From an uncultured delta proteobacterium (GTDB taxonomy: Bacteria > Desulfobacterota > RBG-13-43-22): a stretch of 64,000 bases of DNA. This document shows positions 38,173 through 56,573 of this stretch, in pieces. The stretch is taken from NCBI GenBank assembly GCA_963802945.1, contig CAWDKY010000030.1:32001-96000 (forward strand), read 5' to 3'. The position numbers were made by a program, and so were the translations under genes. Below the pieces are notes generated by a model that made no database searches, had not been told where the DNA came from, and was given only the letters and a program-made list of their open reading frames with translations. The first letter of the stretch is position 1; each line of letters starts with the position of its first letter.

Positions 38173-38348
38173 TTTATTGCCTTAAATAACAGCCAAGGGA
38201 ATATTAAAGATGGAAGAAGTTTTGAATGGTTTGAAAAAAGAACTGGAGCAGACCAATGGACTTCCTGAAGTTCACTCAAGTATTCCACGCCCTTTTCGGC
38301 CCACTGAAGGTTGTCGTCCACAGACGACCAAAAGCAGACGTTCGACAT
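38169..38348 (-). CDS. Putative 59-aa leader ORF coupled to the permease
   Basis: AAGGGGG RBS then MSNVCFWSS...LLFKAIK; its TGA overlaps the permease ATG (ATGA). Confidence 0.4.
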   Translation of the reverse strand: MSNVCFWSSVDDNLQWAEKGVEYLSELQEVHWSAPVLFSNHSKLLPSLIFPWLLFKAIK

Positions 38349-38351
38349 ATC

Positions 38352-38478
38352 CCCCTTTACGCTACGAGGTTAGCTGACGGGCTCGGGCAGGAGGCAACTT
38401 GCCCTACCGCACAACGGATTCGCCCCGAATGATCGGGTCCCCCGCTTCTCTGGTTTAATACCTGAGAACTCGCTGGTC
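38352..38478 (-). ncRNA. c-di-AMP (ydaO/yuaA) riboswitch
   Basis: Minus strand GCGGGGGACCC...TTCGGGGCGAATC...GGTAGGG...CCCGAGCCCGTCAGCTAACCTCGTAGCG matches the ydaO consensus. Confidence 0.92.
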
Positions 38479-38671
38479 GGCCTTATACCCAGCCGATGCG
38501 GGGTAATTTAAACCTTTCTTAAGGGAAGTCAATAAAAAAAATAGTGTAATCTATATGAGTTGGGCTTTAAAATTTTGATCGGTCTACCCCTGGAAATTTG
38601 CACTCCGAGCTAACCTGTGTTACTATTAAACAAATAGGGAAATCAATTCGTTAGTTCAAAAGGATTTATCA

Positions 38672-45179: not shown

Positions 45180-45396
45180 TTGACACAGACACACCGGAGG
45201 TTGTATTAAGAAAATGCTGCTATAGAGGAAACGCAGAAACACTAAGAAGGTGCTCGTAGCACTGTGTAGCTTTTTTAACTTGAACCTATTGTTTTTTGGG
45301 GTTCAAGGGTCCCGTTTTTCTGTTTTATAAAGTCAATGAGGCCATGAAGGCCCTCAAGCCGCATGAATGCGGAGTGGGCGTTCGTGGTTTTTTTTT
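45180..45396 (+). promoter_or_regulatory. Promoter plus structured leader (ANGAA hairpins, intrinsic terminator)
   Basis: TTGACA 45180; CACT-AAGAA-GGTG 45240-45252; GGCC-ATGAA-GGCC 45340-45352, whose strand also pairs with 45376-45389 before a T-run. Confidence 0.7.
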
Positions 45397-45505
45397 GCGC
45401 AAAGCCGTACCGAAACTACCCGCCCCTTCTGTTTTAATTTATTACGAAAGTCGCAAAATCAAATTTCATATCTTACTTCATTAATTTCAATAGGAAGGAG
45501 ATTAT

Positions 45506-47656
45506 ATGGTGAAGATTGCCCTCTTAATTTGCGCCTGGGTCATTCTGACGTTCTTCTCTGTTTGCGTGTGGGCGGCGGACACGGACAGCAGTGCGCCACC
45601 AGCGGAAATATCCTCACCTGCTACAGGTGAGATTCCAAAGGGCGCTGTTCAATCGTTAGTGTTGCCCGAGATAGTAGTTGAGGGGCGAAGCGACAACATG
45701 CTCGGCATCAGTGATACTTCTACTCAGGGCACGATTGGCGCCCAACAACTGGAAGAGCGGCCCATCTCCCGTCCCGGAGAAGTGCTCGAGACCATGCCCG
45801 GAGTCATCGTCACTCAGCATAGCGGCGACGGAAAGGCTAACCAGTATTTTCTCCGCGGCTTCAATCTCGACCACGGCACGGACCTGGCCAGCTTTTTCAA
45901 CGGCATTCCGATCAACTTGCCTTCGAACGCTCATGGCGAGGGCTACACGGACCTCAATTTTCTCATTCCCGAACTGATCAAGAAGATAGACTACGGAAAA
46001 GGGCCAAACTTCGCCAACGTGGGGGACTTCGGCTCTGCCGGCTGGGAAAATATTCAAACCTTTCAGACCCTTCCTGCCGGCCTGGCAAAGATTGAATGGG
46101 GCAGTTGGAATTATGAGCGCGGCCTGTTGGCCGATTCGACCAAGGTCGGCCAGGGCAATCTCCTCGGCGCCCTTGAATGGATGCACACCGACGGACCTTG
46201 GGACGTGCCTGAGAATTATGTGAAATTAAATGGAATAGTAACCTACAGCCAGGGGGACACAAGTCAGGGCTTCAGCGCAACGCTAATGGGCTATCACGGC
46301 ACATGGAATGCGACCAACCAAATCCCGGAGCGAGCGGTCGCCGAGGGGCTCATCGATCGTTTCGGAAACCTGAACCCGACTGATGGAGGTCTAACTGACC
46401 GCTACACCCTGTCAGCCGAATATCATCAAGCCGACGATCACTCGGCTACCAAGATCCTGGGATATGTGTATTACTATAACATGGGGCTCTGGAATGACTT
46501 CACCTTCTTCCTGGATGATCCCGTCCATGGGGACCAGTTTGAGCAAAAGGATACACGATGGGTGCAGGGAGTGAGAGCAAGCCGGACATGGTTCGGCAAC
46601 TGGTGCGGCCTGACAATGCAAAACACTATCGGATTCGACATTCGAAACGACGTGATTCACGACAGCCTGTTGCACACCGAGAACCGGATAGTGCTGTCCA
46701 CAACTCGTGCGGATGATATCGTGGAAACGGACCTGGCCCCCTACTTTGAGAACAAGATTAATTGGCTGCCATGGTTTCGCACCGTTGCGGGCTTTCGCCT
46801 AGATTTCATTAATTTCAACAACAAGAACCTTTTCACCTATTATACCAATGGCCCCAACCCCGCTGACAGCGGAAACCAGTTCGCCTACACTCCCGAACCT
46901 AAGCTGTCTTTGATCTTCGGCCCATGGGCCAAGACGGAGTTCTACCTGAACGGTGCCATGGGCTTCCACACCGACGACGCGCGGGGTATAAATACTACTC
47001 AAGATCCGACCACCGGCGCGCCGGTGCAAAGGGCCTTACCGATAGCGCAAACGTTGGGTGCAGAGGTTGGCGTGCGCACTCTGGCTATCCCAAACCTCCA
47101 AAGCACATTGACGCTCTGGGTGCTGAGGCTGCAATCCGAACTAATCTTTGACGGGGATACAGGTACGACCGAAGCCAGTCCTTACCCCGATCTTCGCAAA
47201 GGGGTGGAATGGGCAAACTACTACACCCCGACCAAATGGCTGACGATCGACGCCGATTTTGCCGACTCCTCAGCGCATTACTTAGGCAATCCGGTGGGGG
47301 GCGATTATGTCCCCGAAGCGGCCAGCCTAATTATTTCCTCCGCCATCACGGTGCATGACCTAAAAGGCTGGACTGCCAGCCTGCGGTGGCGATATTTTGG
47401 ACCTCGCGCCTTGACCCAGGACAATAGCGAACGCTCCCCCAGCACCAGCCTGCTATATTTCCACCTTGGCTACAAAATCAACAAAAACTGGTTGATTGAG
47501 GGAGATATCTTCAATCTCCTCGATGCGAAAGCCGACGATATAACCTACTATTACACCTCCCGGCTGCCAGGAGAGCCGGCTGCTGGTGTAAATGACTTCA
47601 TGTTCCACGCGGCCGAGCCGCGCACCTTCCGCGTTGCACTGACGTACCATTTTTAG
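45506..47656 (+). CDS. TonB-dependent receptor
   Basis: Signal peptide, EIVVEG TonB box, plug HSGDGKANQYFLRGF, FNLLD...PRTFRVALTYHF. Confidence 0.93.
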   Translation: MVKIALLICAWVILTFFSVCVWAADTDSSAPPAEISSPATGEIPKGAVQSLVLPEIVVEGRSDNMLGISDTSTQGTIGAQQLEERPISRPGEVLETMPGVIVTQHSGDGKANQYFLRGFNLDHGTDLASFFNGIPINLPSNAHGEGYTDLNFLIPELIKKIDYGKGPNFANVGDFGSAGWENIQTFQTLPAGLAKIEWGSWNYERGLLADSTKVGQGNLLGALEWMHTDGPWDVPENYVKLNGIVTYSQGDTSQGFSATLMGYHGTWNATNQIPERAVAEGLIDRFGNLNPTDGGLTDRYTLSAEYHQADDHSATKILGYVYYYNMGLWNDFTFFLDDPVHGDQFEQKDTRWVQGVRASRTWFGNWCGLTMQNTIGFDIRNDVIHDSLLHTENRIVLSTTRADDIVETDLAPYFENKINWLPWFRTVAGFRLDFINFNNKNLFTYYTNGPNPADSGNQFAYTPEPKLSLIFGPWAKTEFYLNGAMGFHTDDARGINTTQDPTTGAPVQRALPIAQTLGAEVGVRTLAIPNLQSTLTLWVLRLQSELIFDGDTGTTEASPYPDLRKGVEWANYYTPTKWLTIDADFADSSAHYLGNPVGGDYVPEAASLIISSAITVHDLKGWTASLRWRYFGPRALTQDNSERSPSTSLLYFHLGYKINKNWLIEGDIFNLLDAKADDITYYYTSRLPGEPAAGVNDFMFHAAEPRTFRVALTYHF

Positions 47657-47746
47657 TAACTTTAGGCATGATGGAACGGTATCCTTTCCCGTCCACTCTT
47701 AGTCAGTGGTATGCTGATGAAGCTTTAATAAGAATTTGGTAAGGGA

Positions 47747-48493
47747 CTATGACTCCAAGCGATAAATGATGGGAATAACCAGCCGAGCCTCACCAGGCGG
47801 CTTTGGGAAGGGGGCGGTGTCCTTAACGGTCTCTATGGCACTCTTATCCAGTATGGTAAAACCTGAACTTTGAATGATCTTGAATTCTCTGACGGATCCG
47901 TCTGCCGTAATGATAAAGGAAAGAAGGACTTTCCCTTGCCAGCCCATGCGCCGTGCCATGTCAGGGTAGTTGATGTTCCTGAGAATTTTATCTCGAATAT
48001 AGGCAAAGTGACTTTTTAAATATTTTGCCTTAGCCGATTCGTTCCCACCATCCGAATTTCCCAGGCCTGAGCCTGTTCCCGACCCCTCTTTTGACCCTCC
48101 GGGGGTTCCAGGGGATCCCTCTTTGATAGACTTTGAACCGGTCACCATTCCAAGGCCAAGAGAACTGCCTCCTGGGTCTTGGGCTTCCGGGAGTTTCACC
48201 ACTGCTGGAATTTCCGGGGAGGGTGATAGATTGGGCCTTTCTTCCGGCAATCTGGGAGGTTCTTTTTCCTTTAAGGCCTGACGGGCCTTGGGCTTAATCG
48301 GTTTTGTTTTTATAGCAGGCGTTGGAGCCTGCGGTTCGACCTTTTTGGCATGGAATTCCGGTTTACGCAAATTGAAATCCAATACCGTCAACTTTTTAGA
48401 TTGACCGATGAAGATGCTTAGAATGATGACAACGACAAGAATCAGGCTGTGAAGCAGAAAGGATATTTGGAAGGCCCTGGTCTGGTAATTCAC
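47747..48493 (-). CDS. tonB: Energy transducer TonB
   Basis: SFLLH TM motif, Pro-rich linker, YPDMARRMGWQGKV, SSG..LD. Confidence 0.92.
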   Translation of the reverse strand: MNYQTRAFQISFLLHSLILVVVIILSIFIGQSKKLTVLDFNLRKPEFHAKKVEPQAPTPAIKTKPIKPKARQALKEKEPPRLPEERPNLSPSPEIPAVVKLPEAQDPGGSSLGLGMVTGSKSIKEGSPGTPGGSKEGSGTGSGLGNSDGGNESAKAKYLKSHFAYIRDKILRNINYPDMARRMGWQGKVLLSFIITADGSVREFKIIQSSGFTILDKSAIETVKDTAPFPKPPGEARLVIPIIYRLES

Positions 48494-48870
48494 GGTCCTT
48501 CCTCGGTCTGGAGACTGATGCGGGAAAAATCCAAGCCCTTGAGGACATCCAGGACACTGACGAAGTTCTGCAGGATGATGCTGCGGTCGGCCCTAATCAA
48601 AACAGGGACTTTCTTGTTCAGGGAACTCAGGTCGGTTTTCAACTCTTCCAAAGATACGGGTTTGGAATTCAAATAGATCTTTCCGGCCCGGTCGATTTCA
48701 ATGGTCTGGGTTTTCAGGATTTCCCCTGCGCTTCGATGGGCTTTGGGCAGATCCATGGGAATCATACCGCTGGCGATAAAGGAAGAGGTGGTGAGCACAA
48801 TGGTCAGGAGGACCAGCATGACATCCACTAGGGGAATGACATTGATATAATCAAACTCCTTTTCTTCCAC
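48490..48870 (-). CDS. exbD: ExbD
   Basis: INVIPLVDVMLVLL, IRAD. Confidence 0.95.
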   Translation of the reverse strand: MEEKEFDYINVIPLVDVMLVLLTIVLTTSSFIASGMIPMDLPKAHRSAGEILKTQTIEIDRAGKIYLNSKPVSLEELKTDLSSLNKKVPVLIRADRSIILQNFVSVLDVLKGLDFSRISLQTEEGP

Positions 48871-49285
48871 GTTCGATCTCCCAGTTCATAAGCAGGACTT
48901 TAACTTTTCTAAGCAGAAAATTGTATAACGAGACGGAGGGAATGGCCACCAGAAGGCCGATGGCCGTGGCCTTCAAGGCCAGGGCCAGACCGACCATGAT
49001 CTTGCCCGTGTCCATAAAACCCTCTTGCCCGATCATATAAAAAGTCAGCATGATACCCAGGACCGTTCCCAACAGACCGATATAGGGGGCATTGCTGCCT
49101 ATGGTGGCGATGAGATGGATTTTTTTGGTGAGTTCCAACTCCAGGCTCTTTTGGTCCGGGAAGGCCTCCAGTTTTATATGTTTATAGACATGAAACCTTT
49201 CGATGGCAATCCCTACGGCCATCATACTTAAGAGGATCAAAAATCCTATGATCCCATAATCGACAACAACTTTAAGCCATTCCAT
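48851..49285 (-). CDS. exbB: ExbB (short type)
   Basis: APYIGLLGTVLGI, ALKATAIGLLVAIP. Confidence 0.93.
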   Translation of the reverse strand: MEWLKVVVDYGIIGFLILLSMMAVGIAIERFHVYKHIKLEAFPDQKSLELELTKKIHLIATIGSNAPYIGLLGTVLGIMLTFYMIGQEGFMDTGKIMVGLALALKATAIGLLVAIPSVSLYNFLLRKVKVLLMNWEIERGRKGV

Positions 49286-49379
49286 TTTTTCTCCTACTCG
49301 ATTTCAGCAAGACTCTGAGACCGAAAATGGCCAGAGTGAAGCTTATTCTACGGAAGTCTTTGTATATTTGGCCAACGAT

Positions 49380-50141
49380 TTACCTTTCTATTGAGAGCGG
49401 TACAATAAGAAGAACACCATTGATCTCGGTTACCATCACCTCCATGTTAAAGGCCTGTTTGATGATCTCGGGGGTGATCACCGATCGGTCACCGTGAGCG
49501 TAAACTCGTCCTTCTTTGAGGATGAAAAAACCATCGGAAAACCTCAGGGCCGTATTCAAATCGTGCATTACAGAAATGGTGATGAGACCGAGTCTCTTAG
49601 TAATGTCCTTTAGGAGATTCATGATTTCAAACTGATTTTTCATGTCGAGATGGTTGATGGGCTCATCCAGAAGCAAAACCTTCGGTTCTTGGGCGAGAGC
49701 CCTGGCAATAATCACTTTCTGAAGTTCCCCGCCGCTCAGTTCTGTAGTAAATCGCATGGCGTACCCCTCAAGCCCTGTAAGTCTGAGCATATTGCGGGTT
49801 ACTTCCAAATCAAGCTCATTGATATCCCAATCAATGTGAGGTCTTCGGCCAAGAAGGACGGCATCGAAAACGGTACAATGAACGCCGTTGGACTTCTGAG
49901 GCATATAGCCCATGGTCTTGGCGATTTGTTTCCGACTCATGGCCTCAACGTTTTGTTGGTCTATAAAAATGGTCCCTCGATGGGGAACGAGGATCCTGTT
50001 CATGGTCTTAAGTAGGGTTGTTTTCCCTGAGCCGTTGACACCAAGCACCGAAACCAGGTCCCCAGCCTTAAGCTGAAAGGTAATATCTCTCAGGACTTCC
50101 CTGGAACCATAGGAAAAGGCAATGCCATCCAAGACCAGCAT
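49380..50141 (-). CDS. FecE/BtuD-type ABC ATPase
   Basis: GVNGSGKT, LSGGELQ, HDLN. Confidence 0.92.
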   Translation of the reverse strand: MLVLDGIAFSYGSREVLRDITFQLKAGDLVSVLGVNGSGKTTLLKTMNRILVPHRGTIFIDQQNVEAMSRKQIAKTMGYMPQKSNGVHCTVFDAVLLGRRPHIDWDINELDLEVTRNMLRLTGLEGYAMRFTTELSGGELQKVIIARALAQEPKVLLLDEPINHLDMKNQFEIMNLLKDITKRLGLITISVMHDLNTALRFSDGFFILKEGRVYAHGDRSVITPEIIKQAFNMEVMVTEINGVLLIVPLSIER

Positions 50142-50142
50142 G

Positions 50143-51198
50143 TTAAATGGTTCTCCCTTTAATTAAAAGATAAAGAAAAATAGGAGCGCCGGCAAAAGAG
50201 GTGATGATTCCTACCGGCAGTATAATCGGCTCCATAACCGTACGGGCAATAATGTCCGAGAGCAGGAGGATGAGTCCGCCGGAGATTGCTGATAAGGGTA
50301 TTAGGAAGCGATAATCGTTGCCTACCATTCGTCTCATGAGGTGGGGGGCCATGAGGCCAATGAAACCTATGATGCCCAGGAAGGCAGTGGTCACCGAAAC
50401 CATCAGTGCGGAAAGAAGCAGGCTCATCAGACGCAGGCGTCGAACCGAGACGCCAAGCCCCTTAGCTGCATCATCTCCCCACTGAAAGGCGTTGTAGTCC
50501 CATCCCTTACGTAAGAAGATGACAAATATCGGGCATAAAATCAGGCTCATGATAAGATTCTCTCCCCAACCGGCCTTACCCAGATCGCCGAAAGTCCAGA
50601 AAATAGTGGCCGCCACCTGCATGTCTGTGGCAAAATATTGAAGGAACATGGTTCCTGCAAGGAAGAAGGCACTCAGGGCAACACCGGCCAGGATAACACC
50701 TTCACTGCTGATTTGCCTTAAGGTGGAAATTAAGAGTATCAGTCCTACGGTCAGCAGGGAACCGACAAAAGCCGCCGGCACGACAACCGATGGCAGGCTG
50801 GTGGTAACGGCCTCAATCCCTTCTGTGTGGACCTTTCCCGCCCCTAAAACGATAATGGCGAAAGCTGCACCAAAGGCCGCCCCGTGGGACACCCCGATGG
50901 TGAAAGGTTCAGCCAAAGGATTTCTGAAGACATTTTGTAAAACCACACCAGCCAGCCCCAGCCCGGCCCCGGCGATTACAGCCCCGATAATTCGGGGAAG
51001 TCTAATATTCCACAGCACATGATGATCAAGCCCATTAGCGTTCCAAGAAAACAGGGTGAAGAGAATCTCTCTCAGCGAAAGATGGATGGATCCTACTTTT
51101 AGAGAATAAAGGCCTGCTCCAAGAAGGAGCAATAGGAGGACCACCCCCGTCCAAATTTTTTTCTTTGTCAGCTCCCGGTAGCCATCTTCCGGTTGCAT
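50143..51198 (-). CDS. FecCD/BtuC-type ABC permease
   Basis: IRLPR, RNPLAEP, GFIGLMAPH. Confidence 0.92.
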   Translation of the reverse strand: MQPEDGYRELTKKKIWTGVVLLLLLLGAGLYSLKVGSIHLSLREILFTLFSWNANGLDHHVLWNIRLPRIIGAVIAGAGLGLAGVVLQNVFRNPLAEPFTIGVSHGAAFGAAFAIIVLGAGKVHTEGIEAVTTSLPSVVVPAAFVGSLLTVGLILLISTLRQISSEGVILAGVALSAFFLAGTMFLQYFATDMQVAATIFWTFGDLGKAGWGENLIMSLILCPIFVIFLRKGWDYNAFQWGDDAAKGLGVSVRRLRLMSLLLSALMVSVTTAFLGIIGFIGLMAPHLMRRMVGNDYRFLIPLSAISGGLILLLSDIIARTVMEPIILPVGIITSFAGAPIFLYLLIKGRTI

Positions 51199-51199
51199 C

Positions 51200-52327
51200 C
51201 TACTGGATACGAAGACCCTCTTTTTCAAAAAGCACCTTTCCAAACCCGTAGAGTTCCTTCTTGATCCGATTATATACGGGTAACCCTATAAAGAAGTTAA
51301 AGATCTCATCCGTTTTCTTTGCCGGTTCAATATCCGCAAAATGCGTAGGATAGAGTATTCTCCCTATAAAATAAGCGTCGGCAATCATGATTTCTATGTT
51401 GGTATGATAATAATTATAGGGCAGGGTGAGAAATACCCTATTTTTCTGTACAGCGGAAAGGCGTCTATAAAACCCTGCATTCCGGCGATAATCGGATTGG
51501 ACCATCTCCAGGCCCCCGGCATCGATGAATATGAACTCTGGGTTCCAGAGAAGAAGCTTTTCAGGATCAATGTAATTATGGCCGGTCCGGCCGATTTCAT
51601 TAGCCACGTTTCGGGCTTGGACCCATTCAAGAGGCAGGTAAAAAGCCTCGGTACTGGTTAGACCATGCACCCCCTTGAAGCCGATGGCCCCCACATAGGC
51701 CCGGGGACGTAAGCCATCCGGGATATCGGAGGTTCTGTCTCTGAGATCCTTTTCAGACTTCTTGATAAAGGCGATAACTTCTTCGGCCCGAGCACTTTTA
51801 TCCAGAAACTTTCCGGCCAGCCGCAGGGATCCGAAGATATTTTCCTTGTCCAAACCTCCTCCGGGAGAGCCATAGCTCAGCACCACCACAGGAATTCCAG
51901 TCTTTTGCTGAATGGTTTCGACCTGGGCAAGGTCTACTCCCATGGCCAGGATCAGATCAGGTCTGACAGCGATGATCTTTTCAAAATCCGGCAGTTTCCC
52001 AGGTCCTCCCTCCCCGATGTCCGGTAAGGATTGAGCAATTTTTTCAACGGCCAGGCTGTACACCCGGGTGGTAGGTAATGGTTTCTGTTTTTCCAATCTT
52101 TCCACACCGGCAACTTTATCAAGGGCCTGAAGGTAGACTACAAAACGCAAGGCCCCACCTAAGGGTACGATCCGGCTGACTCTTTGAGGGATGCGCACTG
52201 ACCTTCCCGCCATGTCCTTTATGGTGAGATTTTCCTTTGCGGCCAGGACCTGAACATTGGAATAAATCAAGCAACCAAGTATGATCCCTAACATTAAGAT
52301 ATTCGAACGCCTCAAATAACCCGCCAT
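51200..52327 (-). CDS. FecB/BtuF-type periplasmic binding protein
   Basis: DMAGRSVRIP, EKIIAVRPDLIL, AVQKNRV. Confidence 0.9.
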   Translation of the reverse strand: MAGYLRRSNILMLGIILGCLIYSNVQVLAAKENLTIKDMAGRSVRIPQRVSRIVPLGGALRFVVYLQALDKVAGVERLEKQKPLPTTRVYSLAVEKIAQSLPDIGEGGPGKLPDFEKIIAVRPDLILAMGVDLAQVETIQQKTGIPVVVLSYGSPGGGLDKENIFGSLRLAGKFLDKSARAEEVIAFIKKSEKDLRDRTSDIPDGLRPRAYVGAIGFKGVHGLTSTEAFYLPLEWVQARNVANEIGRTGHNYIDPEKLLLWNPEFIFIDAGGLEMVQSDYRRNAGFYRRLSAVQKNRVFLTLPYNYYHTNIEIMIADAYFIGRILYPTHFADIEPAKKTDEIFNFFIGLPVYNRIKKELYGFGKVLFEKEGLRIQ

Positions 52328-53103
52328 ACAATAACCCCCTCTTCTACATAGGTGCGATGACGCACCCTGCCGTTTACCTCCATTTGGGAAACCACATCCC
52401 GTATGAGCTTTCTTTGGGCAGGGTGTCCGGTAAGCTCGATATGACCGGCCAGATCTTCAAGGGTTTCATCGACCGTGCCTTCCCAGTCCCAGAAGGTGTT
52501 TATGAAATCAAGGCTCGAAGACCAGCCTGTTTTTTTCAGCAGATTGTAAATGATCAAAGCTCCCGGCGGTGGTCCGAAAGGCAGACTGTGTATTCGGAAG
52601 ACCTCTTCCATTAAGGTGTTTTTCCGTTTATTGCCCCAACCTACATAGACGCACCACTGTTTGGAACAAAGCATCATCTTTTTAACATCTTCTTCGTCAC
52701 AGACCGCCATGGACATGGACGTCCAAACGATATCGAAACTCCTGAGGAATCCCTGCAAGGAGACGTCAAGGGAGTCCCAGGATGCCTGGAGATGATCCCA
52801 ATTATGGATGCCGTGCCTTTGGGCTTCCTCCTCAAACAGGCCCAGCATCTTTTCTGAGATATCGACCCCGGTAACCTTCAAGGCCTTGCGGGCCAGCGGC
52901 AAGGTATAGATACCCGTACCGCAACCGATGTCGAGAATGTCGGCCCCTGCGGTTTCAACCCCCTTACTTGTAACCAGGGATATAACCTCTTCGGTTTTTT
53001 TGAGATTTTCAGGGTCAAAAGGTAAGGGATACTTCTTGGCCTTCATCTCCCAAAAATTTCTGAAACGGTCCTCCCGGAACCTGGCTTCCCTTTCAGTATC
53101 CAT
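52312..53103 (-). CDS. Class I SAM methyltransferase
   Basis: ILDIGCGTG, GVDISEKM. Confidence 0.88.
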   Translation of the reverse strand: MDTEREARFREDRFRNFWEMKAKKYPLPFDPENLKKTEEVISLVTSKGVETAGADILDIGCGTGIYTLPLARKALKVTGVDISEKMLGLFEEEAQRHGIHNWDHLQASWDSLDVSLQGFLRSFDIVWTSMSMAVCDEEDVKKMMLCSKQWCVYVGWGNKRKNTLMEEVFRIHSLPFGPPPGALIIYNLLKKTGWSSSLDFINTFWDWEGTVDETLEDLAGHIELTGHPAQRKLIRDVVSQMEVNGRVRHRTYVEEGVIVWRVI

Positions 53104-53113
53104 ACCATTTCCT

Positions 53114-55210
53114 CTAAAAAGTGAGTTTTATAGCTGTACCAATTACCCTGCCCAGCGAAGGGTACCCCAGGACCTCTTGGTATTGTTTGTCAAAGAGATT
53201 TTCAACATACAAGCTTAGTTCGACGTGTTTCATCAGTGGTATTTTGAGTTCCACATCAGCGGTAATAAACGAATCCAGGGTCATGAGTTTGTAGTTTGTC
53301 GTTTGCGGCCATCCCCAGCCGGTGCTGTAAGTATAAATGGTCTTCTGTTCCCCCACGTAACGGGCAGTCGTGTTTAACAGCATCTTATAAGGAAGCTTCC
53401 AGTCCAGCCCTAGACTTCCCTTCCATTCAGGCAAGTAATCAAGTTCATCCGTAAGGTGGGCCGTATCGAAAGGATCTCCTTCTTTTTTGCTTTTCTGGTA
53501 GGTTAGGTTGGCCTTGGCAGAAAGCCAACCGGTAATATCTGTTCGGCCCTCAACAGAACCGCCCCATAAGGTGACCTTGTCAATATTATAGGTCCCTTGC
53601 CAATTTGGGTCGAATCGCATATATATAAAATTATCTATGTTGTAATAGTAGGTGGAGAGACGCACGGAACTCTTTTTCCCAAAATTATGCTGATAGATAA
53701 GCTCCCCGGCGGTGTTTTTCTCAGGTTGAAGAACGGGGTTTCCGTGGGTCTGCCCGGTAGCCCACCAATACATCTCCGGTAGGTTAGGGGTTCTTAGGGC
53801 CTGGTATACTGACGCCGTCAGTGTGTCAGAAGGAGTTATTTTGAAGGTACCGGTCAGCTTCGGAGAAAATCCATCATCATTCAGTTCAGGAATTGTACTG
53901 CCGTTTATGGGAATCAGATGGTAGATATCATATCTTAATCCCAAGGTTGCTGTGAACCAGTCGGACATTTTCCAGGTGTCCTGAGCATAATATCCCCAAT
54001 TTTTGCCTTCCTGCGACGGAGCATAGCCGCTATAAGGCTGCCCGTTATATGTGGTATCGACATAATTTACAATAGTATTACCGAAGGCCAAGACCTTATA
54101 GTCCACACCCATAATCAGCTCATGCTTCCCAAGCGGTATCGTCCCCTTTAAATTTCCTCCATAGGACCGGTCGGATTCAACGGTCCTGTCGAGCACGAGG
54201 ATCCCATCGGGATAACCGCTTACTACGGAACTCGACGAGTAGTTTTTTTCCCTTCTGTCCTCTATGTTCTTATAAACCTTGAACTCCACCAGCGCATCGC
54301 CAATGGGCTGCTTATAGCCCAAATCAAGATAATATTTTGTCTTGTCCCATTGGGCATCAGGTCCGGGGGTGGAGACATTTCCCATATAGGGGGATAGGGT
54401 TTCTCCAAAGGCGAGGGGATAGTTCGGATTTTTTTTTACGAAAAAATTGGGATTGGTCGGGTCGTCTGATAACCTGTTCTCCCGAATAAAACCCCGCACG
54501 GTATTGTTGTATTGGAGTCCCAGGGACAGCTCCCCCCGAAGCGGCATATCCAGATATAGCGATCCGGCAAAATTTTTGGCCTCAAAATCATTGTTCCATA
54601 GAAAAGGGTCTCCCTTCTGGTAACTGGCGGCCAGGGAATACCCCAGAGGTCCGATTTTGTAAGTATGGGTCAGACGGTAGTTCTGGATGCCTTCGCCGTC
54701 TTGCCCAATCCCGTAGTTCCCGTAAAAAGTCAGTGTGGGGGTTTCCGTGGGTCTTTGGGTTACCACATTGATTACACCTCCAAGAGCATTGTTGCCATAA
54801 ATGGCCGAACTTCCCCCCTTGATTATTTCAATCCGTTCAATGTTGTCGAGAGGGATGGTGCCCCAGTCAATGAAGTAACCGCCCACTACCCCTGCTGCAT
54901 TTACCGGTCTGCCGTCGATGTTCAACAAGATTCTGTCCCCAGACAAACCCCGGATCGATAAAATATCAGCCGTATCGCCGATGCTGGCCCTTCTGTGCAA
55001 ATCAATATCGGGTTCGTTTTTTAATACATCGGGGATGTTAACGTTCTTTCCCCGTTCAATGGTCTCCTTCCCGACCACGGTCGCTGCGGGTTCGGAGGAA
55101 ATAGAATCCGTTACCACGATCTCCTCCAGCGTAAGATGATCAACCTCCGTAGCCCATCCGAAGCTGGCAAACAAAGAAAACAATATGGTGAATAAAATAA
55201 TAACAGGCAT
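53114..55210 (-). CDS. TonB-dependent receptor
   Basis: EEIVVT, IERIEIIKGGSSAIYG..ALGGVINVVT, ENLFDKQY, terminal F. Confidence 0.95.
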   Translation of the reverse strand: MPVIILFTILFSLFASFGWATEVDHLTLEEIVVTDSISSEPAATVVGKETIERGKNVNIPDVLKNEPDIDLHRRASIGDTADILSIRGLSGDRILLNIDGRPVNAAGVVGGYFIDWGTIPLDNIERIEIIKGGSSAIYGNNALGGVINVVTQRPTETPTLTFYGNYGIGQDGEGIQNYRLTHTYKIGPLGYSLAASYQKGDPFLWNNDFEAKNFAGSLYLDMPLRGELSLGLQYNNTVRGFIRENRLSDDPTNPNFFVKKNPNYPLAFGETLSPYMGNVSTPGPDAQWDKTKYYLDLGYKQPIGDALVEFKVYKNIEDRREKNYSSSSVVSGYPDGILVLDRTVESDRSYGGNLKGTIPLGKHELIMGVDYKVLAFGNTIVNYVDTTYNGQPYSGYAPSQEGKNWGYYAQDTWKMSDWFTATLGLRYDIYHLIPINGSTIPELNDDGFSPKLTGTFKITPSDTLTASVYQALRTPNLPEMYWWATGQTHGNPVLQPEKNTAGELIYQHNFGKKSSVRLSTYYYNIDNFIYMRFDPNWQGTYNIDKVTLWGGSVEGRTDITGWLSAKANLTYQKSKKEGDPFDTAHLTDELDYLPEWKGSLGLDWKLPYKMLLNTTARYVGEQKTIYTYSTGWGWPQTTNYKLMTLDSFITADVELKIPLMKHVELSLYVENLFDKQYQEVLGYPSLGRVIGTAIKLTF

Positions 55211-55294
55211 TAGGCATCTCCTTTTTTGTTTTAATTTTCACCCCCTTTCTGATATATTTTTATAAGGGAGCGAAGTGTTTTGTAGCGTTTCCCT

Positions 55295-55336
55295 GCAGAC
55301 AGGGCGCTACCGGCTAAAGGTTCCCGCCCTGTCTGC
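55295..55336. other. Perfect 12-bp inverted repeat in the fmdE-receptor spacer
   Basis: GCAGACAGGGCG ... CGCCCTGTCTGC. Confidence 0.6.
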
Positions 55337-55531
55337 CTTCTCTTAACTTTTTAGGGTATTAACCCTGTCTCAATAAGCATCATTTCCTTCTTCTTCCCAA
55401 AAAAAACTTAGGCATCAGGTTATTCCTCCCATCCAGGTGTATATTCCCACCGCTTTTTCCCCCCGGTGGCTTAAGTTAATATGGGGATACCGTTTTTGGG
55501 TTAAACCAGAAGTGGTCTTCTTAAAACCCTT

Positions 55532-56146
55532 TTAATACCGTCTTTCCATATCTTCAAAACAAGGGATACACAGTACCTTTTCCTGAAAACGCCGTGTTCG
55601 TGTCTCCATGACTGCCTCACCACACGAGTCACAGATCAAACTGGACAGGATCCGGGCTTTCCTGGGAGCAGGTTCGGATGGGGTCTTGATTTCAAAGAGT
55701 TTGTTAAAATCAGCTTCCATAATATGCCGGGAGATTCGCTCCTGGCTTTCCTGCCAAGTCTTCTCTTCCTCTTCAGTCAAGCCCTCTTGCTGCATCTTTC
55801 GAAAAAACTCTTTGAGGATCGGTCCGGATTCTCCAAAAATATCTGGACGGGCTATCAGCCGGGCTGATTTACCGTCCCGTCTCCGGTAGAAGGTAAAGGC
55901 GTTTTTCCCGAAGTCCTTGTGAATCAAGTTGCCCTTGCCAAAGGTGCAGCCGGTTAAAAATTGTATGGCGTCTACGCCACACATGTCGGTTTCCACTACG
56001 GCCACAATTTCTTCGTCCGAGGCCTTGCCCATTTCCTCAACGGCCCACTGGGCAGCCCGGATTCCAACGGCCAGTCCAGGACACCAATGGCCGTGAAAAG
56101 AGATTGTTTGTTCGATGCGTTGGGGATTTATTGGTGCAGCGCTCAT
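55532..56146 (-). CDS. FmdE-family protein with C-terminal zinc finger
   Basis: FHGHWCPG, CGVDAIQFLTGCTFGKGNL, CDSCGE...CIPC; AAGGAG RBS before ATG 56146. Confidence 0.9.
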   Translation of the reverse strand: MSAAPINPQRIEQTISFHGHWCPGLAVGIRAAQWAVEEMGKASDEEIVAVVETDMCGVDAIQFLTGCTFGKGNLIHKDFGKNAFTFYRRRDGKSARLIARPDIFGESGPILKEFFRKMQQEGLTEEEEKTWQESQERISRHIMEADFNKLFEIKTPSEPAPRKARILSSLICDSCGEAVMETRTRRFQEKVLCIPCFEDMERRY

Positions 56147-56169
56147 AAATTTCTCCTTAATAAAGTCCA

Positions 56170-56357
56170 TTATTCTTCAAAATAAATTTTGTGATTGACC
56201 AGGTTCATCATTTTGATTCGAGCCTTTATGGTTTTCTGATCTCCAAAGATGTCTAACAGACGAAACTTATCAGATCCTTCAGGCTCGATCACATCCACAG
56301 ATTCCATAAGAAGCTCCTCCTCCCCCCTTTAACCAAATACGCATTGGATTCACACAT
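56170..56357 (-). CDS. CooT-family nickel-binding protein, frameshift in G6 run (56322-56327)
   Basis: GGAGG RBS; MCESNAYLVKGG/EEELLMESVDVIEP...DIFGDQKTIKARIK..NLVNHKIYFEE with Cys2 and C-terminal His; absent from the ORF track. Confidence 0.85.
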
Positions 56358-56419
56358 CTTTCAATTCCTCCTTCCCCGCCAATCACATACACGCTTGGTC
56401 GGCATAACTATTTATATCG

Positions 56420-56573
56420 AAAAAAAAAGCCACGAAAACCGAGCTGCTTCTTGCAGCTTTGGCCTTCGTGGCCCTGTTTAAAACAACTTCTTATAATTTA
56501 AATTACCAGTAGTGTGCCTTCTTGGCGTTCCTTGTTATAAAAGAGGTTACCTTAATCACTTGGTGAATGTCAA
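56420..56573 (-). promoter_or_regulatory. Promoter plus structured leader (ANGAA hairpins, intrinsic terminator)
   Basis: TTGACA; GCC-AAGAA-GGC 56526-56516; GGCC-ACGAA-GGCC 56473-56461 overlapping terminator GCCACGAAGGCC...GGTTTTCGTGGC-U9. Confidence 0.75.

Follow-up and report, generated by a model that had tools for sequence, protein, structure and literature searches.

Two leaders before TonB-type uptake genes of an uncultured delta proteobacterium belong to a widespread family of nickel/cobalt-uptake attenuators, with DUF3842 as the candidate reader

Two transcription units on one contig of an uncultured delta proteobacterium (Desulfobacterota, lineage RBG-13-43-22) begin with leaders of the same layout, in which small hairpins precede and overlap a terminator; what do these leaders control, and what reads them? 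The window analysed here is the whole stretch of 64,000 nucleotides (nt) taken from contig CAWDKY010000030.1 of assembly GCA_963802945.1 (positions 32,001 to 96,000, forward strand), and the two elements in question are leader 1, on the + strand at 45180-45396, and leader 2, on the - strand at 56573-56420. Both are members of one widespread, uncatalogued family of nickel/cobalt (Ni/Co) uptake attenuators. The full reading developed below, in which the leaders attenuate Ni/Co uptake as one conserved family, are read by the protein DUF3842 and use CooT as its nickel-binding partner, has about an even chance of being right.

The layout that the initial annotation read in the letters agrees with the calculated folds: both leaders contain small hairpins with (A)NGAA loops, and a strong intrinsic terminator has the hairpin GGCC-AYGAA-GGCC in its 5′ arm. 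The elements of the two leaders are as follows.

45180-45185, + strand: TTGACA of leader 1, a -35-like hexamer, read in the sequence
45240-45252, + strand: hairpin 1 of leader 1, CACU-AAGAA-GGUG, from sequence and fold; the same in the G005 orthologue
45297-45324, + strand: internal terminator-like hairpin of leader 1 with a T-run, from the terminator scan and the tandem modules of relatives
45338-45387, + strand: terminator stem of leader 1, with the U-run at 45388-45396; matches the covariance model R1 at E=7.6e-13
45340-45352, + strand: hairpin 2 of leader 1, GGCC-AUGAA-GGCC, within the terminator 5′ arm
45359-45372, + strand: apical hairpin of leader 1, CCGCA-UGAA-UGCGG, at the terminator apex
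56573-56568, - strand: TTGACA of leader 2, a -35-like hexamer, read in the sequence and kept in genus-level homologues
56526-56516, - strand: hairpin 1 of leader 2, GCC-AAGAA-GGC, a weak stem of 3 bp
56475-56429, - strand: terminator stem of leader 2, with the U-run at 56428-56420; matches R1 at E=2.6e-15
56473-56461, - strand: hairpin 2 of leader 2, GGCC-ACGAA-GGCC, within the terminator 5′ arm
56458-56442, - strand: apical hairpin of leader 2, AGCUGC-AAGAA-GCAGCU, at the terminator apex

In particular, each leader ends as intrinsic (Rho-independent) terminators do, with a GC-rich stem-loop and nine U residues directly 3′ of it. The minimum free energy folds of both leaders include these terminators; compared with 200 shuffles each, the fold of leader 2 has z = -5.0 and was equalled by none, and that of leader 1 has z = -2.35 and was equalled by four. 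The terminators have folding energies of -31.4 and -32.8 kcal/mol, hairpin 2 alone has -6.8 and -7.2 kcal/mol, and hairpin 1 of leader 1 alone has -2.3 kcal/mol. At the place homologous to the weak hairpin 1 of leader 2, relatives carry GGCC-ACGAA-GGCC with longer stems. Moreover, the sequence GGCCAYGAAGGCC, searched with at most one mismatch, occurs five times in the window against 0.25 expected, and its two exact matches are leaders 1 and 2. A simple terminator scan picks up only parts of the branched leader stems.

The TTGACA hexamers had been taken as promoters, which stands in part. The hexamer is present in both leaders, and among 58 homologous leaders 44 have it at most 220 nt upstream; a simple consensus scan, however, recognised no promoter of the sigma-70 type on the strands of leaders 1 and 2, their -10 boxes being weak. 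The internal hairpin of leader 1 at 45297-45324 is probably what is left of a first module, since two complete attenuator modules stand in tandem in the orthologues, one from G013 and one from contig C50 of the present genome (G000). For the receptor gene of leader 1, relatives (L061; G000:C50:810-1009) were also seen to carry two complete GCCAYGAAGGC terminators in series. Two further observations concern leader 2. On a relative’s contig (runs X1 and X3), the A-U pair at 56458/56442, the base of the apical hairpin, is replaced by G-C, a compensatory change, and the loop has changed as well. Further, the stretch AUGCCGAYCAAGCG is conserved 3′ of the terminator (window 56366-56410, - strand; also in L025 and L026) and could pair with sequence just 5′ of the ribosome-binding site (CCAA/UUGG); it may serve as a further element, acting on translation, or as a 5′ hairpin with a stabilising role.

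Are the two leaders a local oddity? Homologues were found by BLAST in the genus, together with two further tandem copies on contig C50 of this genome. The pattern GCCAYGAAGGC-N12-42-TTCGTGG matches in 78 of 401 sampled Desulfobacterota genomes, and the reversed control pattern gave three matches in two genomes of the same sample. Strict-pattern matches were rejected as a census: some of the 78 genomes owe their match to coding sequence (for example G041, G149, G196 and the f16 group), and many true leaders deviate from the pattern (for example those of G150 and G001). A scan of species representatives returned at least 120 stretches, which among the matches listed are mostly from Desulfobacterota, with others from Nitrospirota, NC10 and Bacillota (such as Roseburia, Oscillospiraceae and Emergencia). 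The pattern is also listed there for Desulfoluna butyratoxydans MSL71 (L240). The idea that the two window leaders arose by a recent local duplication was rejected because homologues occur in four phyla. In all, 58 distinct copies of the terminator type, ending in a U-run, were collected. R1 is a covariance model of the terminator module; having been built from pattern-selected copies, it favours GCCACGAAGGC, and variants like the leader of G181 escape it.

The collected copies allow the mutually exclusive pairings to be followed across homologues. Two sequences are too few to judge the A-U to G-C covariation that the initial annotation read between the window leaders, and it is in the homologues that covariation shows. 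The only base pair of hairpin 2 that the search pattern leaves free (alignment columns 3/15) is paired in 47 of 58 copies, as G-C in 25, A-U in 13 and G-U in 9, and unpaired in 11; this pairing was reached by none of 500 shuffles and has a permutation p of 0.00065, statistics that are inflated by related sequences. Column 3 also pairs with column 56 in the terminator. Since both pairings hold, hairpin 2 and the terminator are exclusive and both are maintained; the dual-hairpin/terminator logic postulated at first is real. Moreover, the 5′ arm of the terminator is invariant and its 3′ arm drifts between C and U opposite GG, the behaviour to be expected of a 5′ arm that also serves another function. 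The loops are retained as well. Of 56 copies, 36 have an upstream hairpin whose loop ends in GAA (shuffles: mean 8.6, maximum 18), and among the other upstream-loop trinucleotides of these copies the next-best reaches 22 and the median is 6; the stems of the upstream hairpin differ wholly between families, with the loop kept. Similarly, 29 of the 58 copies have an apical hairpin with a GAA loop, compared with a shuffle mean of 3.0.

The same features bear on an explanation at the level of DNA, according to which the GCCACGAA/TTCGTGGC inverted repeats would be a repressor operator, or the elements would be ordinary terminators or repeats without a switch. The outer stem is indeed an inverted repeat, and certain copies, those of G220, G249 and G276 among them, are perfectly palindromic, matching on either strand. 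However, the element always faces the uptake gene, lies between promoter and gene, and has the U-run at its end; its invariant 5′ arm stands opposite a 3′ arm that tolerates G-U wobble, which counts against an operator because G-U pairs form in RNA and not in DNA; the loop of hairpin 1 is retained over wholly different stems; and covariation is seen at the free pair of hairpin 2. An explanation at the DNA level is therefore very improbable.

As RNA elements, the leaders lie outside the known models, in keeping with the initial annotation. Rfam 15, searched on the window at the gathering threshold, has nothing at the leaders; at E≤10 it gives nothing relevant on either leader (including the NiCo/czcD, guanidine-II/mini-ykkC, cobalamin and molybdenum cofactor models), at E≤1 it gives no match on 14 homologous loci, and at E≤10 it gives chance-level rows only on four Bacillota loci. 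The hexaloops that define ANTAR targets are likewise absent from the leaders. A true riboswitch of a new kind would have the GAA-loop hairpins dock around a small ligand, such as a Ni/Co ion, a metallophore or another molecule, and thereby stabilise hairpin 2 against the terminator. The element is kept across four phyla without a universal protein partner, and ACGAA is the commonest loop in hairpin 2. Riboswitches made from two mini-hairpins also have a precedent in guanidine-II, in which two hairpins with invariant ACGR tetraloops dock, upstream of guanidine carboxylase or efflux genes. Unlike in guanidine-II, the present loops are mostly pentaloops with a variable position 2 (C, U, A or G), and the genes that follow are for Ni/Co uptake. 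Leaders differ widely in how many hairpins they have (1 to 4) and in how far apart these stand (~10 to 100 nt), some Nitrospirota leaders having a second CC-ACGAA-GG hairpin at the terminator apex and no upstream hairpin, and the loops are not complementary to each other. There is no conserved linker or junction able to form a pocket, even the permissive Rfam search found no match, and a ligand-stabilised antiterminator would turn uptake on when metal is abundant, which is the wrong sign. A riboswitch is thus distinctly unlikely.

The genes behind the leaders point to the signal. In a tally of 56 downstream regions, 48 contain at least one of the following: a TonB-dependent receptor (TBDR), ExbB/ExbD/TonB, a periplasmic binding protein (PBP), FecCD or other ABC importer component, CbiM, DUF4198, an OprB or MetA-type barrel or porin, FmdE, or CooT; TBDR genes occur in 22 regions and CbiM in five. 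The assignment of the regulon to Ni/Co uptake, made initially from the two window units, is therefore upheld by receptors, TonB motors, importers, CbiM and DUF4198 elsewhere. The leaders of Nitrospirota, NC10 and Bacillota precede the same gene families. For example, a Clostridiales metagenome-assembled genome (MAG) has a methyltransferase and FmdE behind its leader, as in the window; FmdE follows a leader also in G009, and methyltransferases do so in L115, L224 and L254. Because CbiM/NikM, DUF4198 and CooT are among the genes, the regulon points to nickel, or nickel and cobalt, as its metal. The initially noted link of cooT to the leaders also recurs: the first gene behind a leader is cooT in the window and in two other genomes (G402 and G254), in G282 it is the second such gene, and in G313 and G150 it stands just 5′ of a leader.

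The metal regulators known from other systems act differently. The NiCo (czcD) riboswitch senses the ion directly, is built on a four-way junction and controls efflux; like the present leaders, it and the DNA-binding regulator NikR stand for Ni/Co-responsive control, but the leaders give no match to the riboswitch model and precede uptake genes. According to the consulted part of PMC545781, NikR is the known regulator of nikMNQO in delta-proteobacteria and binds the DNA site GTGTTAC-N13/14-GTAACAC. The genome of the window encodes NikR (PF08753, 117.5 bits; G000:C15:290530-290950), and yet, unlike in a NikR regulon, this operator was not found on contig C30: at most two mismatches allowed, five sites occur genome-wide and none of them on that contig. 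A palindrome GTAGCAC-N13-GTGCTAC lies ~190 nt upstream of the PF08753 match and may be the form that the NikR box takes in this genome.

These elements suggest a mechanism. The energy gap between the terminators and hairpin 2 alone implies that termination is the default and that something must hold hairpin 2 closed; by default, then, the long terminator would form and transcription would stop. By analogy with known antitermination systems, read-through would be brought about by a multimeric trans-acting protein that binds the small (A)NGAA-loop hairpins, namely hairpin 1, hairpin 2 with its near-invariant GCC-AYGAA-GGC and, in many cases, the apical hairpin. Bound hairpin 2 would stay closed, its strand would be unusable as the 5′ arm of the terminator, and the polymerase would enter the uptake genes, presumably under nickel scarcity. 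From comparative genomics, the reader would be DUF3842, and in Desulfobacterota, Nitrospirota and NC10, CooT would supply or tune the nickel signal, in much the way that AmiC acts on AmiR, or anti-TRAP on TRAP.

The choice of DUF3842 comes from its co-occurrence with the leaders. DUF3842 (PF12953; at least ~8000 homologues) is encoded in 152 and CooT in 243 of the 401 genomes, and only four DUF3842-positive genomes are without CooT. DUF3842 is encoded in 40 and CooT in 42 of the 43 sampled genomes whose leaders are of the pattern type, and the three without DUF3842 are at most 85% complete. The R1 model separates the two proteins as follows.

DUF3842-positive genomes missed by the strict pattern: R1 matches in 34 of 40 at E≤0.01 and in 25 of 40 at E≤1e-5
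CooT-positive, DUF3842-negative genomes: R1 matches in 13 of 80 at E≤0.01 (at least three of them coding false positives) and in 5 of 80 at E≤1e-5
Genomes with neither protein: R1 matches in 4 of 40 at E≤0.01 and in 0 of 40 at E≤1e-5

The initial annotation had expected co-occurrence with cooT in a covariance-model search. This was borne out insofar as nearly all pattern-leader genomes have CooT, but the leader tracks DUF3842 and not CooT alone. In the four leader-bearing Bacillota genomes, DUF3842 is present in three and CooT in none; moreover, the Bacillota DUF3842 adjoins no leader, and so is not simply a co-regulated gene. G001 (97% complete) has DUF3842 and a bona fide leader without CooT, and G353 (97% complete) has a leader without CooT. 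Genus g60 offers a comparison among close relatives: G150 has DUF3842-cooT followed by an intact leader, and G083 and G118 keep cooT without DUF3842, with hairpin 1 degraded in G083 and the leader gone in G118.

DUF3842 and cooT are themselves closely linked. In 15 of 19 fetched pairs the ATG of cooT and the stop codon of DUF3842 overlap, the two genes are translationally coupled in Desulfobacterota, Nitrospirota and NC10, and adjacent pairs are present in five of five Nitrospirota genomes and in the one NC10 genome. The pair is often followed by a conserved gene whose product starts M(I/A)..L.WLGHD and looks metallo-beta-lactamase-like by eye (L156, L158, L162 and G000:C14/C23). On these genomic patterns, DUF3842 is most likely the reader of the leaders, and CooT may be its nickel-sensing partner.

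The initial annotation had instead proposed CooT itself as the antiterminator; in such a scheme two GAA loops would be held by the apo dimer and released once nickel is bound. CsrA, whose dimer bridges two hairpin loops, offers a likeness for the CooT dimer. CooT is present in 42 of the 43 pattern-leader genomes and in all five DUF3842-negative genomes with strong R1 matches, and cooT comes first behind the leader in the window, G402 and G254. Further, the consulted part of PMC6006190 describes CooT as a small, beta-rich dimer with nanomolar affinity for nickel, one Ni being bound per dimer via Cys2 with a Kd of 9 nM, and calls its function unclear; Cys2 is invariant in the paired CooTs. Against this proposal, three Bacillota genomes have leader and DUF3842 without CooT, G001 and G353 have leaders without it, CooT-only genomes rarely have a leader (the 5 of 80 listed above), and the CooT fold has no close RNA-binding match, its best non-CooT Z being 5.0 and that of Hfq 2.6. 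The family’s old label as a predicted RNA-binding protein was seen in no search. CooT alone is thus an unlikely reader, and its action as a nickel-sensing antiterminator of its own is improbable.

Several points weigh against DUF3842 as reader with CooT as partner. Five CooT-only genomes have strong leader matches (G083, G163, G254, G323 and G324), and one of them, G323, is rated 100% complete, is without DUF3842 and has its leader before a CbiM-like gene. One leader-bearing Clostridiales MAG, for which a completeness figure is lacking, has neither DUF3842 nor CooT. In many Gram-negatives DUF3842-cooT lies beside or under a leader, so that membership in one regulon, and not the relation of a reader to its target, could account for part of the co-occurrence. 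Because related genomes are not independent samples, the counts look more significant than they are. Both the direction of control and the nickel signal are deduced only from the identity of the regulated genes, and RNA binding by DUF3842 or CooT is a property assigned by analogy. A wide fold comparison of DUF3842 gave a generic alpha/beta fold, with a best Z of 9.0 tied among unrelated families and no RNA-binding relative standing out. Lastly, DUF3842 adjoins a gene read by eye as CobU-like in G353 (L204) and G305 (L205); these paralogues have a C-terminal extension and lie directly upstream of the CobU-like gene (P-loop GGAKSGKS), which hints at a role of DUF3842 in cofactor, cobalamin or cobalt metabolism.

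Such exceptions leave some room for another RNA-binding protein or a shared factor, such as a small RNA or a chaperone, as the reader of the hairpins, with DUF3842 and CooT being mere nickel-handling members of the regulon. Both candidates have exceptions, neither fold points to RNA binding, and DUF3842-cooT itself stands behind GAA-hairpin leaders in G151 and G181. On the other hand, the only genes seen to recur next to leaders are transport genes, FmdE and the methyltransferase, and the Bacillota DUF3842 co-occurs with leaders to which it is unlinked. Another reader is, on balance, rather unlikely.

The model of DUF3842 (predicted local distance difference test, pLDDT, of 81.5) is a generic sandwich of the flavodoxin/Rossmann-like kind that includes a glycine-rich loop and, at the C-terminus, a long helix; a sequence search found no solved relative, Foldseek gave no match to the model at E≤0.001, and comparison with a protein atlas gave no usable match. 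The CooT model superposes on PDB 6FAN with Z 12.5, and among other folds no known RNA-binding attenuator appeared; the partners at Z 2.6 to 5.0 (ATP-synthase epsilon, RimM PRC barrels and Hfq) are predicted similarities too weak to argue either way on RNA binding. For DUF3842 with a CooT dimer, the predicted complex scored 0.39 (runs 0.39, 0.00 and 0.71) against a best control of 0.00, with contacts agreeing between runs in at least 0% and partner pLDDT of at least 86. Among 80 solved complexes, 58 pass the mark of this test, and among 110 mismatched pairs, two do so; passes at scores of at most 0.60 comprise 7 of the 80 solved complexes and both passing mismatches; the modelling thus lends weak support to a DUF3842-CooT complex.

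How do the leaders compare with known attenuation systems? In the consulted sections of Ramesh et al. 2012 (PMC3369931), the leaders bound by ANTAR proteins (targets of EutV, NasR and AmiR) have hexanucleotide loops whose first residue is A and whose fourth is G. Going by that partial account, the present leaders are like them in having two small hairpins with conserved loop residues, of which the second shares a strand with the terminator 5′ arm, in the dimeric protein expected on both loops, and in occurring as several leaders per genome that form a regulon. Unlike them, the present loops are (A)NGAA of 4-5 nt, with G at position 3 and A at 4; the terminators often have a third GAA loop as a cap; and the regulon is Ni/Co uptake, with DUF3842, with or without CooT, as the candidate reader. 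The ANTAR domain (PF03861) has no match in this genome, which is rated 100% complete, nor in any of 14 control genomes.

A second comparison is with the binding sites of CsrA/RsmE, where A(N)GGA lies in hairpin loops with a GGA core, a small beta-rich dimer bridges the sites, and the output is occlusion of the ribosome-binding site. Like these sites, the present hairpins are short, have purine-rich pentaloops and occur several per RNA at variable spacing, which would fit a small dimer. Unlike them, the loop core is GAA (in the enrichment test that found GAA in 36 of 56 copies, GGA lies outside the top 12 loop trinucleotides), the output is an intrinsic terminator, and the fold of CooT is not that of CsrA as far as compared. 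Further, in AmiC-AmiR and TRAP/anti-TRAP a sensor protein gates an RNA-binding attenuation protein. The DUF3842-cooT coupling and the weak complex prediction suggest a similar two-protein logic, but DUF3842 and CooT have no sequence or fold relationship to those proteins.

A nearer relative may exist. The NiCo-AnGGAG motif, said to stem from Weinberg et al. 2017, reportedly consists of loop-conserved hairpins before Ni/Co transporter genes of Clostridia that are thought to be protein-bound. Its name is absent from the main text of PMC5737381 in the portion consulted, though the supplement may contain it; the motif may be the same family as the present leaders or a sister family. No published description of a conserved RNA attenuator before Ni/Co import genes was found in the literature searched, and nothing related was found on DUF3842.

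The known controls are NikR, which acts on DNA, for nickel uptake and the NiCo riboswitch for Ni/Co efflux; an RNA attenuator for import would, if true, be a separate route. If so, one switch would span outer-membrane receptors, the TonB motor, ABC and energy-coupling factor (ECF) importers, and porins, and membership in its regulon would mark the nickel-serving TonB receptors, porins, FmdE proteins and methyltransferases of sulfate reducers, Nitrospirota and gut Clostridia. It would likewise give DUF3842 a function and CooT a second, regulatory role beyond maturation of carbon monoxide dehydrogenase, and the GAA loop would be a new mode of RNA-protein recognition among the few attenuation systems. 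The boldest form of this proposal, that DUF3842 founds a new family of RNA-binding antiterminators reading GAA-loop hairpins, with CooT as the nickel sensor of Gram-negatives, and that an RNA-level nickel switch thus operates in at least four phyla, is tentative and somewhat more likely to be wrong than right.

The genes of the two window units, as assigned by Pfam matches, are listed below; behind leader 2 their order is cooT, FmdE/zinc-ribbon, TBDR, methyltransferase, PBP-FecCD-ATPase and exbB-exbD-tonB.

45506-47656, + strand: TBDR behind leader 1 (Plug and TonB_dep_Rec_b-barrel)
56170-56357, - strand: cooT (PF10133), its frame broken in a run of six G at 56327-56322
55532-56170, - strand: FmdE-domain protein (149.7 bits) with a C-terminal C4 zinc ribbon (zf-dskA_traR)
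53114-55210, - strand: second TBDR
52312-53103, - strand: S-adenosylmethionine-dependent methyltransferase, a recurrent member of the regulon
51200-52327, - strand: PBP of an ABC importer that as a whole spans 49380-52327
50143-51243, - strand: FecCD permease of the importer
49380-50141, - strand: ATPase of the importer
48851-49285, - strand: ExbB
48490-48870, - strand: ExbD
47747-48493, - strand: TonB

The first gene behind leader 2 had been called a CooT gene missed by the open reading frame track, and it is a true cooT. PF10133 matches at 56182-56328 with 63.4 bits against a cut-off of 27, and the product has the Met-Cys-Glu start (N-terminus MCESNAYL), the length of ~62 residues and the hidden Markov model match of the family, whose relatives match PDB 6FAN at E=2e-12. 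Public contigs of X1 (at least 99% identical) and X3 (a relative) have one extra base at 56321/56322, which gives a run of seven G and an open frame. Since the assembly also holds other homopolymer frameshifts, for example in DUF3842 on contig C23, the break is probably an assembly error or a strain variant.

This cooT is an extra copy within the regulated uptake operon. DUF3842 lies directly upstream of cooT at three other loci of this genome (C23:308-892, C22:321-821 and C14:200671-200947). All three show defects: in the C23 copy DUF3842 is frameshifted at a homopolymer, the C22 copy is heavily degraded, and the C14 copy has an internal deletion that leaves ~36 codons of DUF3842 before an intact cooT. 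Together with the break in the G-run of the window cooT, these defects suggest an indel-prone assembly or mixed strains; the contamination of this genome is rated at 6.7%. Elsewhere in the window, a cyclic di-AMP riboswitch of the ydaO/yuaA type (38345-38485, - strand; 75.6 bits) is the sole Rfam match at the gathering threshold.

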